Shown: positions 29,455 through 35,933, counted from the first letter of the stretch. The stretch: 64,000 nt of DNA from Eledone cirrhosa (GCA_964016885.1 OZ024758.1:20646001-20710000), one strand, 5' to 3'. A program made the numbers and translations. Notes: generated by a model not told the origin, from the letters alone.

Positions 29455-32400
29455 ATTGGAATAAATGCTCTGAAATAGCGATATATATATGAATATAGAC
29501 ATAGAATATTCGAAAATATTCTGTATGTTTATAATAAACATTTTGAAGACCTAATCGCTATAGAATAGAATACGTCACGTATTACAATTAGATTCTCGAT
29601 AAAAGCAAGGGAAGTAATCTACGCGTTTCATTCTTGTTAGAATTCATCAGGACTACATATCCAGTGCTTTTATCGAGAATGACACAGCTAGAGACTTATA
29701 GAATACTTAGCTGTGTACAGGAACTGGTTTGAAAGAGCGGTTGCCGGTCCGGCAGAAATTAGAAATTGGAATAAATGCTCTGAAATAGCGATATATATAT
29801 GAATATAGACATAGAATATTCGAAAATATTCTGTATGTTTATAATAAACATTTTGAAGACCTAATCGCTATAGAATAGAATACGTCACGTATTACAATTA
29901 GATTCTCGATAAAAGCAAGGGAAGTAATCTACGCGTTTCATTCTTGTTAGAATTCATCAGGACTACATATCCAGTGCTTTTATCGAGAATGACACAGCTA
30001 GAGACTTATAGAATACTTAGCTGTGTACAGGAACTGGTTTGAAAGAGCGGTTGCCGGTCCGGCAGAAATTAGAAATTGGAATAAATGCTCTGAAATAGCG
30101 ATATATATATGAATATAGACATAGAATATTCGAAAATATTCTGTATGTTTATAATAAACATTTTGAAGACCTAATCGCTATAGAATAGAATACGTCACGT
30201 ATTACAATTAGATTCTCGATAAAAGCAAGGGAAGTAATCTACGCGTTTCATTCTTGTTAGAATTCATCAGGACTACATATCCAGTGCTTTTATCGAGAAT
30301 GACACAGCTAGAGACTTATAGAATACTTAGCTGTGTACAGGAACTGGTTTGAAAGAGCGGTTGCCGGTCCGGCAGAAATTAGAAATTGGAATAAATGCTC
30401 TGAAATAGCGATATATATATGAATATAGACATAGAATATTCGAAAATATTCTGTATGTTTATAATAAACATTTTGAAGACCTAATCGCTATAGAATAGAA
30501 TACGTCACGTATTACAATTAGATTCTCGATAAAAGCAAGGGAAGTAATCTACGCGTTTCATTCTTGTTAGAATTCATCAGGACTACATATCCAGTGCTTT
30601 TATCGAGAATGACACAGCTAGAGACTTATAGAATACTTAGCTGTGTACAGGAACTGGTTTGAAAGAGCGGTTGCCGGTCCGGCAGAAATTAGAAATTGGA
30701 ATAAATGCTCTGAAATAGCGATATATATATGAATATAGACATAGAATATTCGAAAATATTCTGTATGTTTATAATAAACATTTTGAAGACCTAATCGCTA
30801 TAGAATAGAATACGTCACGTATTACAATTAGATTCTCGATAAAAGCAAGGGAAGTAATCTACGCGTTTCATTCTTGTTAGAATTCATCAGGACTACATAT
30901 CCAGTGCTTTTATCGAGAATGACACAGCTAGAGACTTATAGAATACTTAGCTGTGTACAGGAACTGGTTTGAAAGAGCGGTTGCCGGTCCGGCAGAAATT
31001 AGAAATTGGAATAAATGCTCTGAAATAGCGATATATATATGAATATAGACATAGAATATTCGAAAATATTCTGTATGTTTATAATAAACATTTTGAAGAC
31101 CTAATCGCTATAGAATAGAATACGTCACGTATTACAATTAGATTCTCGATAAAAGCAAGGGAAGTAATCTACGCGTTTCATTCTTGTTAGAATTCATCAG
31201 GACTACATATCCAGTGCTTTTATCGAGAATGACACAGCTAGAGACTTATAGAATACTTAGCTGTGTACAGGAACTGGTTTGAAAGAGCGGTTGCCGGTCC
31301 GGCAGAAATTAGAAATTGGAATAAATGCTCTGAAATAGCGATATATATATGAATATAGACATAGAATATTCGAAAATATTCTGTATGTTTATAATAAACA
31401 TTTTGAAGACCTAATCGCTATAGAATAGAATACGTCACGTATTACAATTAGATTCTCGATAAAAGCAAGGGAAGTAATCTACGCGTTTCATTCTTGTTAG
31501 AATTCATCAGGACTACATATCCAGTGCTTTTATCGAGAATGACACAGCTAGAGACTTATAGAATACTTAGCTGTGTACAGGAACTGGTTTGAAAGAGCGG
31601 TTGCCGGTCCGGCAGAAATTAGAAATTGGAATAAATGCTCTGAAATAGCGATATATATATGAATATAGACATAGAATATTCGAAAATATTCTGTATGTTT
31701 ATAATAAACATTTTGAAGACCTAATCGCTATAGAATAGAATACGTCACGTATTACAATTAGATTCTCGATAAAAGCAAGGGAAGTAATCTACGCGTTTCA
31801 TTCTTGTTAGAATTCATCAGGACTACATATCCAGTGCTTTTATCGAGAATGACACAGCTAGAGACTTATAGAATACTTAGCTGTGTACAGGAACTGGTTT
31901 GAAAGAGCGGTTGCCGGTCCGGCAGAAATTAGAAATTGGAATAAATGCTCTGAAATAGCGATATATATATGAATATAGACATAGAATATTCGAAAATATT
32001 CTGTATGTTTATAATAAACATTTTGAAGACCTAATCGCTATAGAATAGAATACGTCACGTATTACAATTAGATTCTCGATAAAAGCAAGGGAAGTAATCT
32101 ACGCGTTTCATTCTTGTTAGAATTCATCAGGACTACATATCCAGTGCTTTTATCGAGAATGACACAGCTAGAGACTTATAGAATACTTAGCTGTGTACAG
32201 GAACTGGTTTGAAAGAGCGGTTGCCGGTCCGGCAGAAATTAGAAATTGGAATAAATGCTCTGAAATAGCGATATATATATGAATATAGACATAGAATATT
32301 CGAAAATATTCTGTATGTTTATAATAAACATTTTGAAGACCTAATCGCTATAGAATAGAATACGTCACGTATTACAATTAGATTCTCGATAAAAGCAAGG

Positions 32401-33798: not shown

Positions 33799-35933
33799 CT
33801 GCCGGACCGGCAACCGCTCTTTCAAACCAGTTCCTGTACACAGCTAAGTATTCTATAAGTCTCTAGCTGTGTCATTCTCGATAAAAGCACTGGATATGTA
33901 GTCCTGATGAATTCTAACAAGAATGAAACGCGTAGATTACTTCCCTTGCTTTTATCGAGAATCTAATTGTAATACGTGACGTATTCTATTCTATAGCGAT
34001 TAGGTCTTCAAAATGTTTATTATAAACATACAGAATATTTTCGAATATTCTATGTCTATATTCATATATATATCGCTATTTCAGAGCATTTATTCCAATT
34101 TCTAATTTCTGCCGGACCGGCAACCGCTCTTTCAAACCAGTTCCTGTACACAGCTAAGTATTCTATAAGTCTCTAGCTGTGTCATTCTCGATAAAAGCAC
34201 TGGATATGTAGTCCTGATGAATTCTAACAAGAATGAAACGCGTAGATTACTTCCCTTGCTTTTATCGAGAATCTAATTGTAATACGTGACGTATTCTATT
34301 CTATAGCGATTAGGTCTTCAAAATGTTTATTATAAACATACAGAATATTTTCGAATATTCTATGTCTATATTCATATATATATCGCTATTTCAGAGCATT
34401 TATTCCAATTTCTAATTTCTGCCGGACCGGCAACCGCTCTTTCAAACCAGTTCCTGTACACAGCTAAGTATTCTATAAGTCTCTAGCTGTGTCATTCTCG
34501 ATAAAAGCACTGGATATGTAGTCCTGATGAATTCTAACAAGAATGAAACGCGTAGATTACTTCCCTTGCTTTTATCGAGAATCTAATTGTAATACGTGAC
34601 GTATTCTATTCTATAGCGATTAGGTCTTCAAAATGTTTATTATAAACATACAGAATATTTTCGAATATTCTATGTCTATATTCATATATATATCGCTATT
34701 TCAGAGCATTTATTCCAATTTCTAATTTCTGCCGGACCGGCAACCGCTCTTTCAAACCAGTTCCTGTACACAGCTAAGTATTCTATAAGTCTCTAGCTGT
34801 GTCATTCTCGATAAAAGCACTGGATATGTAGTCCTGATGAATTCTAACAAGAATGAAACGCGTAGATTACTTCCCTTGCTTTTATCGAGAATCTAATTGT
34901 AATACGTGACGTATTCTATTCTATAGCGATTAGGTCTTCAAAATGTTTATTATAAACATACAGAATATTTTCGAATATTCTATGTCTATATTCATATATA
35001 TATCGCTATTTCAGAGCATTTATTCCAATTTCTAATTTCTGCCGGACCGGCAACCGCTCTTTCAAACCAGTTCCTGTACACAGCTAAGTATTCTATAAGT
35101 CTCTAGCTGTGTCATTCTCGATAAAAGCACTGGATATGTAGTCCTGATGAATTCTAACAAGAATGAAACGCGTAGATTACTTCCCTTGCTTTTATCGAGA
35201 ATCTAATTGTAATACGTGACGTATTCTATTCTATAGCGATTAGGTCTTCAAAATGTTTATTATAAACATACAGAATATTTTCGAATATTCTATGTCTATA
35301 TTCATATATATATCGCTATTTCAGAGCATTTATTCCAATTTCTAATTTCTGCCGGACCGGCAACCGCTCTTTCAAACCAGTTCCTGTACACAGCTAAGTA
35401 TTCTATAAGTCTCTAGCTGTGTCATTCTCGATAAAAGCACTGGATATGTAGTCCTGATGAATTCTAACAAGAATGAAACGCGTAGATTACTTCCCTTGCT
35501 TTTATCGAGAATCTAATTGTAATACGTGACGTATTCTATTCTATAGCGATTAGGTCTTCAAAATGTTTATTATAAACATACAGAATATTTTCGAATATTC
35601 TATGTCTATATTCATATATATATCGCTATTTCAGAGCATTTATTCCAATTTCTAATTTCTGCCGGACCGGCAACCGCTCTTTCAAACCAGTTCCTGTACA
35701 CAGCTAAGTATTCTATAAGTCTCTAGCTGTGTCATTCTCGATAAAAGCACTGGATATGTAGTCCTGATGAATTCTAACAAGAATGAAACGCGTAGATTAC
35801 TTCCCTTGCTTTTATCGAGAATCTAATTGTAATACGTGACGTATTCTATTCTATAGCGATTAGGTCTTCAAAATGTTTATTATAAACATACAGAATATTT
35901 TCGAATATTCTATGTCTATATTCATATATATAT
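33799..35933 (+). mobile_element. Hammerhead-bearing 310-bp tandem array, inverted right arm, ~6.9 units
   Basis: ctgccggaccggcaacc starts at 33799, 34109, 34419, 34729, 35039, 35349 and 35659. It is the reverse complement of the left arm and ends in the unit's internal (AT)5 tract, which merges into genomic (TA)n. Confidence 0.93.
33874..33962 (+). ncRNA. Type I hammerhead ribozyme (representative of 21 copies)
   Basis: attctcgataaaagca-ctggatat-gtagtc CTGATGA attct-aaca-agaat GAAA cgcg TA gattac-ttccct-tgcttttatcgagaat. Stem I is 6 bp + internal loop + 16 bp perfect; stem II is 5 bp; stem III is the palindrome ACGCGT; GUA cleavage is predicted after 33934. Confidence 0.93.

Follow-up and report, generated by a model that had tools for sequence, protein, structure and literature searches.

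The window, i.e., the 64,000-nt stretch of DNA analysed here, contains at 29455..35933 an array of a 310-bp unit in 20.9 copies, with 21 hammerhead cores and zero mismatches between units. The first-pass annotation described about 21 non-coding units in tandem with no visible differences, and the count, the identity and the lack of coding capacity hold: the unit has a GC content of 33.9%, and its longest ATG frame is 30 aa, so that no protein is coded. The tandem order does not hold, since the array is not a single head-to-tail run but two arrays of opposite orientation, with 14 cores on the minus and 7 on the plus strand. With unit phase counted from 33800 (phase 0), arm A (29455..33798, minus) comprises 14.0 identical units with the ribozyme sense on the minus strand, and its outer (3') end, site A, lies at phase 299. 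Arm B (33799..35933, plus) comprises 6.9 identical units of the same haplotype, and its outer (3') end, site B, at phase 264–273, runs into a TA tract. The arms meet 5'-to-5' (head-to-head) at 33798..33799 in a blunt joint with no gap, the truncated 5' ends being at phases 296 and 309. Unit phases 274–299 form a "tail" (29455..29480, minus) that arm A, but not arm B, has at its outer end, while site B (35924..35933, plus) is the unit's (AT)n stretch overlapping the target TA tract. Because the insertion ends within the TA tract (left (TA)n target tract, 28681..29454; right, 35934..36423), a target-site duplication is unreadable. The sole match in the window at Rfam gathering thresholds is a 5S rRNA.

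Each unit carries a type I hammerhead, exemplified by the first plus-strand copy (33874..33962), which recurs each 310 bp in both arms. It is composed of an outer stem (33874–33889/33947–33962), stem I (33898–33903/33935–33940, phases 98–103/135–140), the core (33904–33910, phases 104–110), stem II (33911–33924, phases 111–124), the GAAA segment (33925–33928) and a palindromic helix III (33928–33933), all on the plus strand. The 6-bp stem I is accompanied by a further 3-bp and a 14–16-bp stem, and the predicted cut lies, as in the first-pass annotation, after A33934 (phase A134, i.e., 134/135). Helix III is a single A–U pair closing a palindromic tetraloop (ACGCGU), of the dimer-dependent type; the predicted dimer helix III has 6 bp at −9.5 kcal/mol. 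Hammerheads with such a helix III are described as cleaving as dimers and poorly as monomers (cited portion of PMC4209133), and the 1-bp palindrome makes it likely that cleavage needs dimers here as well. The "complete" hammerhead proposed for each unit is therefore a type I hammerhead in its stems, core and GAAA, but not complete as a monomer, and absence of monomer cleavage would not count against a retrozyme, since the monomer is predicted to cleave poorly. The Rfam search suggested earlier gives a match to HH9 alone (23 bits, E = 0.0031), below the gathering score of 52. Folded from cut to cut, the monomer has z-scores of −4.7 as a linear molecule and −3.9 as the circle proposed in the first reading, the two monomer ends are adjacent in the fold, and the hairpins listed there are present.

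Every feature testable in sequence supports the original assignment of the element as a non-LTR retrozyme. Metazoan non-LTR retrozymes, the axolotl HHR_Amex1/newt satellite type among them, are described in PMC7229834 as tandem units of 150–450 bp with low GC content (<50%) and a type I hammerhead in each; the present unit falls within both ranges and has its hammerhead in 21 cores, with at least two consecutive units as the published minimum. Further likenesses in the cited portions of PMC7229834 and 10.64898/2026.07.22.740005 are the 1-bp helix III with palindromic tetraloop, the lack of an ORF and the presence of Penelope-like elements (PLEs) in the genome. The loci read show neither coding capacity nor LTR organisation, only arrays. 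A plant-type LTR retrozyme, with type III hammerheads in its LTRs, is excluded by the type I topology and the tandem units. RNA forms are demonstrated in the published systems, whereas the present element is known from its genomic copies; rolling-circle reverse transcription is given there as the authors' hypothesis.

Counted by exact sequence patterns in the 3.0-Gb genome, the 43-nt core occurs 2,528 times, and TA-joined ends occur 1,046 times at site A (phase 299) and 1,239 times at site B (phase 264–273), which confirms the dispersed copies expected earlier and gives a family of more than 1,000 loci. Capture–recapture arithmetic on these end counts and those of C1 yields an estimate of ~1,700 loci, or, at 8.5 units each, ~15,000 units genome-wide. 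Within 218 Mb of C1 there are 80 A and 100 B ends, among which 57 divergent pairs can be made out; 57/57 are A/B, with zero A/A and zero B/B. Reading every one of the 43 unpaired B ends showed no second B as partner; of the 23 unpaired A ends, 17 were read. In total, 99 loci were read (94 on C1), located by core, end or variant patterns and mostly through TA-joined ends; L100 was dropped as a duplicate of L060, and 18 loci of a 312-bp subfamily stand outside the counts. Two divergent arms are present at 77 loci, 2 loci are complex, and 20/99 are one-armed and count against a two-ended model of insertion. In 77/77 two-armed loci there is one arm with its end at site A and one with its end at site B, the sites being 26–40 nt apart, so that each locus has the inverted 5'-truncated copy and one-sided tail of a PLE derivative. 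For the first 52 loci, A ends lie at phases 288–306 (35 at 299) and B ends at 259–273, and 101/104 flanks are in TA tracts, a figure partly inherent in the search, yet TA flanks are present at 9/10 loci found through the core alone. This layout at 77/99 loci is unlike that in the published accounts of non-LTR retrozymes cited above, whose main texts describe neither arrays in inverted or head-to-head order nor paired ends at fixed positions nor the targeting of microsatellites; the word "inverted" has 0 matches in the main text of PMC7229834 and one, in the references only, in 10.64898/2026.07.22.740005.

The EN+ PLEs of the Hydra and Neptune groups, as described in the cited portions of PMC8557442 and PMC3846280, provide a parallel, with partial tandems, an inverted 5'-truncated copy, a 30–40-bp tail at one end, (TA)n targets and a hammerhead near the end. 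The retrozyme differs from them in the absence of an ORF and in arms that consist of many laps of a small unit. A Hydra-clade PLE with RWR, DKT and CxCx5C motifs lies within the window and has 62 scored copies at 99–100% identity, i.e., the genome holds a young autonomous PLE with the same target, as expected for a PLE derivative. It consists of a long and a short arm with ends ~105 nt apart, Pfam gave no match to its ORF, and it has neither a hammerhead nor similarity to the retrozyme. A second Hydra family has its own hammerhead, with a stem II matching that of the retrozyme at 24/28 nt. Its 15 stretches comprise 12 clear A/B pairs, one stretch with a single scored end, one A/A over 8.7 kb that contains another element, and one that is unclear. 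The autonomous Hydra PLEs thus obey the A/B rule of the retrozyme. No autonomous element sharing the 3' region of the retrozyme was found among the four PLE families seen; hammerhead stem II of the second Hydra family is the only sequence in common with PLE pLTRs, none being shared with two other families, and a four-family profile run across the fetched loci gave only retrozymes among the 80 of 99 weak matches listed. A Neptune-like family (95–97% identity) was rejected as partner, its own ends differing from those of the retrozyme, and on C440, where it adjoins an old sister retrozyme, one element appears to be nested in the other. Two other leads turned out to be sister retrozymes.

The link to PLE machinery made in the first-pass annotation is supported by the TA targets and by the end rule common to Hydra PLEs, and the retrozyme likely uses a borrowed Penelope-type RT-endonuclease. 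Because of the youth, the target and the stem II match, a Hydra-clade PLE is our best guess for the partner enzyme, one that we hold to be moderately probable. In published accounts of PLEs (cited portions of PMC8557442 and PMC3846280), the inverted copy is "often" present, the tail is "optional" and antisense self-priming has been proposed, and PMC8557442 describes the way in which tandem and inverted insertions form as undefined. In vitro, the Poseidon PAc protein cuts and extends both DNA strands in AT-rich DNA and uses two internal RNA start sites that bound the tail, but the templates are linear, the start site is the same for both strands, and hammerhead cleavage is dispensable for insertion (cited portion of PMC11167929). 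By comparison, the retrozyme has different sites at its two ends in every two-armed locus, and a ribozyme that is under selection (see below). Non-coding PLE parasites are also described among the Chlamys elements, e.g., MRC1, which form multicopy head-to-tail insertions, but these are green algal and generally have 3' sequence in common with an autonomous partner (cited portion of PMC8557442). The retrozyme may be compared, too, with L1 twin priming, in which two primers on one RNA give a divergent layout sealed by microhomology. There, however, the second primer acts upstream at a variable position and the resulting pieces have no overlap, while the two starts of the retrozyme lie next to each other at constant positions and lead to copies of one sequence.

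Taken from the sequences, the reading that we consider probable is that of a young non-coding retrozyme for which both ends of a TA-tract break prime on one 310-nt RNA circle and roll. Judging from the anatomy and the published work, multimeric transcripts would self-cleave via paired (double) hammerheads, stem I would keep the monomer ends together while a host ligase closes the circle, and a circle on its own would be a poor substrate for cleavage. The break in the TA tract, the target observed, would be the work of a PLE RT-endonuclease, for which the Hydra clade is the most likely source. The cDNA would start at RNA site A on one DNA end, and at site B, 26–40 nt upstream, on the other, with one A and one B start per insertion as the observed end pattern suggests. 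Each cDNA would run for a variable number of laps and halt at a random phase; the random inner ends and uniform units are observed, and a circular template would be consistent with them. Microhomology would then let the two cDNA 3' ends pair, and fill-in would supply the second strand of each, a repair route suggested by the junction sequences. A few long arms would grow later by unequal exchange, as the observed mosaics indicate. Whether the same applies to PLEs in general we regard as evenly balanced, namely that their integration is double-ended with a fixed asymmetry, both ends of a broken TA tract being primed on one RNA, one at each edge of the tail, with independent reverse transcriptases that would lap where the RNA is a circle, and the cDNAs being sealed together. 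Such a rule, if true, would explain the inverted copy and the one-sided tail of PLEs alike.

The evidence on the template comes from haplotypes. The 48 loci compared hold 26 haplotypes, nearly all of them uniform over both arms. Across 848 units, with two mosaic arrays left out of the variant counts, there are 33 variants fixed in a locus as against 102 rare ones; 93/102 of the latter are seen once, so that most copies should be older than any mutation. Variants in stems and core that keep versus break pairing number 6:3 among fixed and 1:21 among rare ones (Fisher p = 0.0007), which shows that spreading variants keep the predicted ribozyme paired, i.e., that it is under selection. The 312-bp subfamily has a compensatory C–G to U–A change at 88/148. 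The hammerhead is also retained, in other letters, by two older sister families, one of 315 nt (63% identity) and one of 338 nt (55% identity): their stems differ, and so does the helix III palindrome in one of them. The lineage is an old one that spread in waves.

In the whole genome, variant 253G is present at two uniform loci, of 18 and 10 units, and in one unrelated single unit, in L183, which was rejected as their parent because it is a terminal unit on a different background. Within the 46-unit mosaic arm M217, 148A+34A is found in 8 monomers, no two of them neighbours and each with a 148G unit after it. The uniform daughter predicted from this minority monomer was found in L203, among 20 loci read out of 102 genome matches, where every unit of the two arms has 148A+34A. 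A uniform locus such as L203 cannot come from a linear transcript of M217, which favours a monomer template, and the linkage of the two variants places the monomer break within phases 35–148, a range that includes the cut site 134/135. L203 is one case; 148A arose independently elsewhere (in the 312-bp subfamily and in one unit of L219), and a lineage with 34A only exists (323 matches). Uniform source loci could also give uniform multimers or two identical circles.

A different template would be long uncleaved linear multimers transcribed from uniform arrays, on which double-ended PLE priming would take place, with circles as by-products. The main PLE substrate in vitro is described as unprocessed RNA (cited portion of PMC11167929), 8/9 Xenopus retrozyme dimers are reported without cleavage (cited portion of 10.64898/2026.07.22.740005), and in L108 and L306 the first laps of the two arms mirror each other in a single-unit variant, which fits a multimeric template or later conversion. 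Linear multimers cannot, however, make a single-unit change an all-unit one, as in the 33 fixed variants, the 253G loci and L203; there are 2 mirrored against 48 unmirrored variants, and the variants that spread keep the ribozyme. We consider linear multimers unlikely as the general template. In L307, arm A has 4 outer units unlike both its 2 inner units and arm B, so that two templates or conversion were involved. The patterns in L108, L306 and L307 make it likely that some insertions, a minority, involved multimer templates, template switches or later conversion, and as a rough estimate one insertion in ten would stem from multimers. As for the first-pass proposal of a recent rolling-circle cDNA of a circle, lap copying of a monomer thus appears probable, but a single cDNA is replaced by two, from opposite break ends.

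Lap copying would not be needed if short insertions were later amplified as satellite DNA by unequal exchange or slippage, as local amplification is favoured in the cited portion of the 2026 preprint (10.64898/2026.07.22.740005). Two arms of 45–46 units are indeed mosaics with repeated blocks, expanded after insertion, and L053 has a linked variant pair repeated 7 units apart. As a general explanation, later amplification is nevertheless very unlikely, considering that 93/102 rare variants occur once, that the array in the window, as recent as first supposed, has 0 variants in 20.9 units, and that the paired arms and fixed ends are left unexplained.

The inner ends are spread over the whole unit, and only 3/104 are within 10 nt of the cut site, in favour of laps that run on without a seam. 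Joints in the 77 two-armed loci have overlaps in 34, neither overlap nor insert in 11 and inserts in 32, many of which copy nearby sequence. Arm B is longer than arm A in 38/77 loci; at least 20 nt are present in B but absent from A in 7 loci, and in A but absent from B in 9, and each arm has unique sequence in L285, L094 and L220. Joint inner ends fall within 20 phases of each other in 11/77 loci, where ~10 are expected, i.e., the joints are not palindromic. Because of this, and because either arm can be the longer and each can have unique sequence, both arms are read as copied from RNA. Self-primed fold-back copying of the first cDNA, a mechanism put forward for head-to-head PLE repeats on the strength of junction palindromes (cited portion of PMC3846280), would be expected to leave palindromic joints and to have one arm lie within the other in sequence. 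It would account for the mirrored variants and L307, and site B overlaps an AT run where such a copy might end, but the same inner ends, arm lengths and mutually unique arms, together with the zero B/B loci, make it scarcely credible as the origin of the second arm. An assembly or read fold-back artefact, which the perfect identity and inverted symmetry, the assembly gaps ending L050 and L314 and the duplicated pair L060/L100 might suggest, can practically be dismissed, given unrelated left and right flanks, arms that end at different fixed sites, private haplotypes of the loci, and independent short-read contigs in which the unit, variants of it and the two kinds of TA-joined end all occur.

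Among sequencing runs, the unit is present in 20 with 17 organism codes, 16 besides organism A. No RNA run is listed among the 20; run X19, of unspecified kind, contains the unit as well. The depth of the unit is 5–34 in four contig runs outside organism A, a comparison that covers 4/16 other codes, versus ~400,000 in organism A. In two of these four runs, other repeats of the source genome occur at a similar trace depth, and raw reads of organism K contain 0 matches to the unit. Horizontal transfer is unsupported by these data, and trace carry-over is the more likely explanation.

The use of circular templates by retrozymes and PLEs is a hypothesis from 2014 and 2020 (cited portions of PMC4209133 and PMC7229834). 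A literature search, mostly without subscription journals, returned no statement of the one-A-one-B rule or of haplotype evidence for lap copying; the strict coupling of ends appears new, its component parts being already known, and so does the genomic evidence for laps. If the proposed reading is true, the family preserves in an animal genome the products of rolling-circle reverse transcription from a circle made by a ribozyme. It supplies more than 1,000 near-identical, haplotype-tagged products, together with a substrate of 310 nt whose two start sites are mapped, which makes the questions of PLE insertion and circular templates directly testable. Each insertion is also a kilobase-scale near-perfect palindrome, and as such likely to give rise to double-stranded RNA and to instability at its locus.

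The two-armed layout, in which two tandem arms stand back to back with their 5′ ends joined, is also frequent among the older relatives of the retrozyme, of which there are at least four (312, 315 and 338 nt, and one more; genomic loci L163–L182, L223–L246, L145 and L204–L222); one of their motifs gives 3,273 matches. In most loci of the retrozyme itself, the basal position of stem II (unit phase 111, counted from window position 33800 as phase 0) is a U-U mismatch, and the haplotype of the window has an A-U pair at this position. Most retrozyme loci thereby resemble the axolotl ribozyme HHR_Amex2, for which PMC7229834 reports a U-U mismatch at the stem II base. 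At L185–L186 and L194–L195, the retrozyme arms comprise 45–46 units and are changing into satellite-like mosaics with higher-order blocks.

The window also holds a two-armed Penelope-like element (PLE) of the Hydra clade (43660–50008), with the long arm on the minus strand and a short inverted arm at 49677–50008. The long arm carries a 5′-truncated reverse transcriptase (RT) plus GIY-YIG frame (47527–49830, minus strand). The full unit measures about 6.3 kb and includes an 830-aa frame, identity is 99–100% across 62 scored copies, and the 3′ region is filled with microsatellite; a search of the window's element for a hammerhead found none. A second Hydra PLE family (L143, C1:14.20–14.21 Mb, and L131–L162) has a 5,966-bp unit with a 758-aa frame, and its hammerhead core has 3,910 exact matches. 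In numerous tiny two-armed insertions of this family, the 5′ ends of both arms lie 1–5 nt upstream of the ribozyme core, marking a strong stop at this point. The locus at C1:83.68 Mb carries a tandem derivative with a length of 1.07 kb.

The abundant PLE of L247–L276 (95–97% identity, 111 scored copies) carries a motif resembling a hammerhead, and its copies end at either of two sites separated by about 70 nt; we take it to be Neptune-like, a clade call resting on its motifs. Another PLE, at L128, has an inverted layout with a hammerhead within its terminal repeat.

High-copy repeats of the E. cirrhosa genome occur in trace amounts in four public contig sets filed under other organisms (X4, X5, X6 and X16), a pitfall when transfer is claimed.

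Elsewhere in the window, a LINE-type RT (3′ part; 36421–37368, plus strand) directly adjoins the right TA tract of the retrozyme insertion, the GIY-YIG end of another PLE family lies at 60245–60862 (plus strand), and one lone copy of the 5S rRNA gene occupies 13394–13513 (minus strand, 99 bits).
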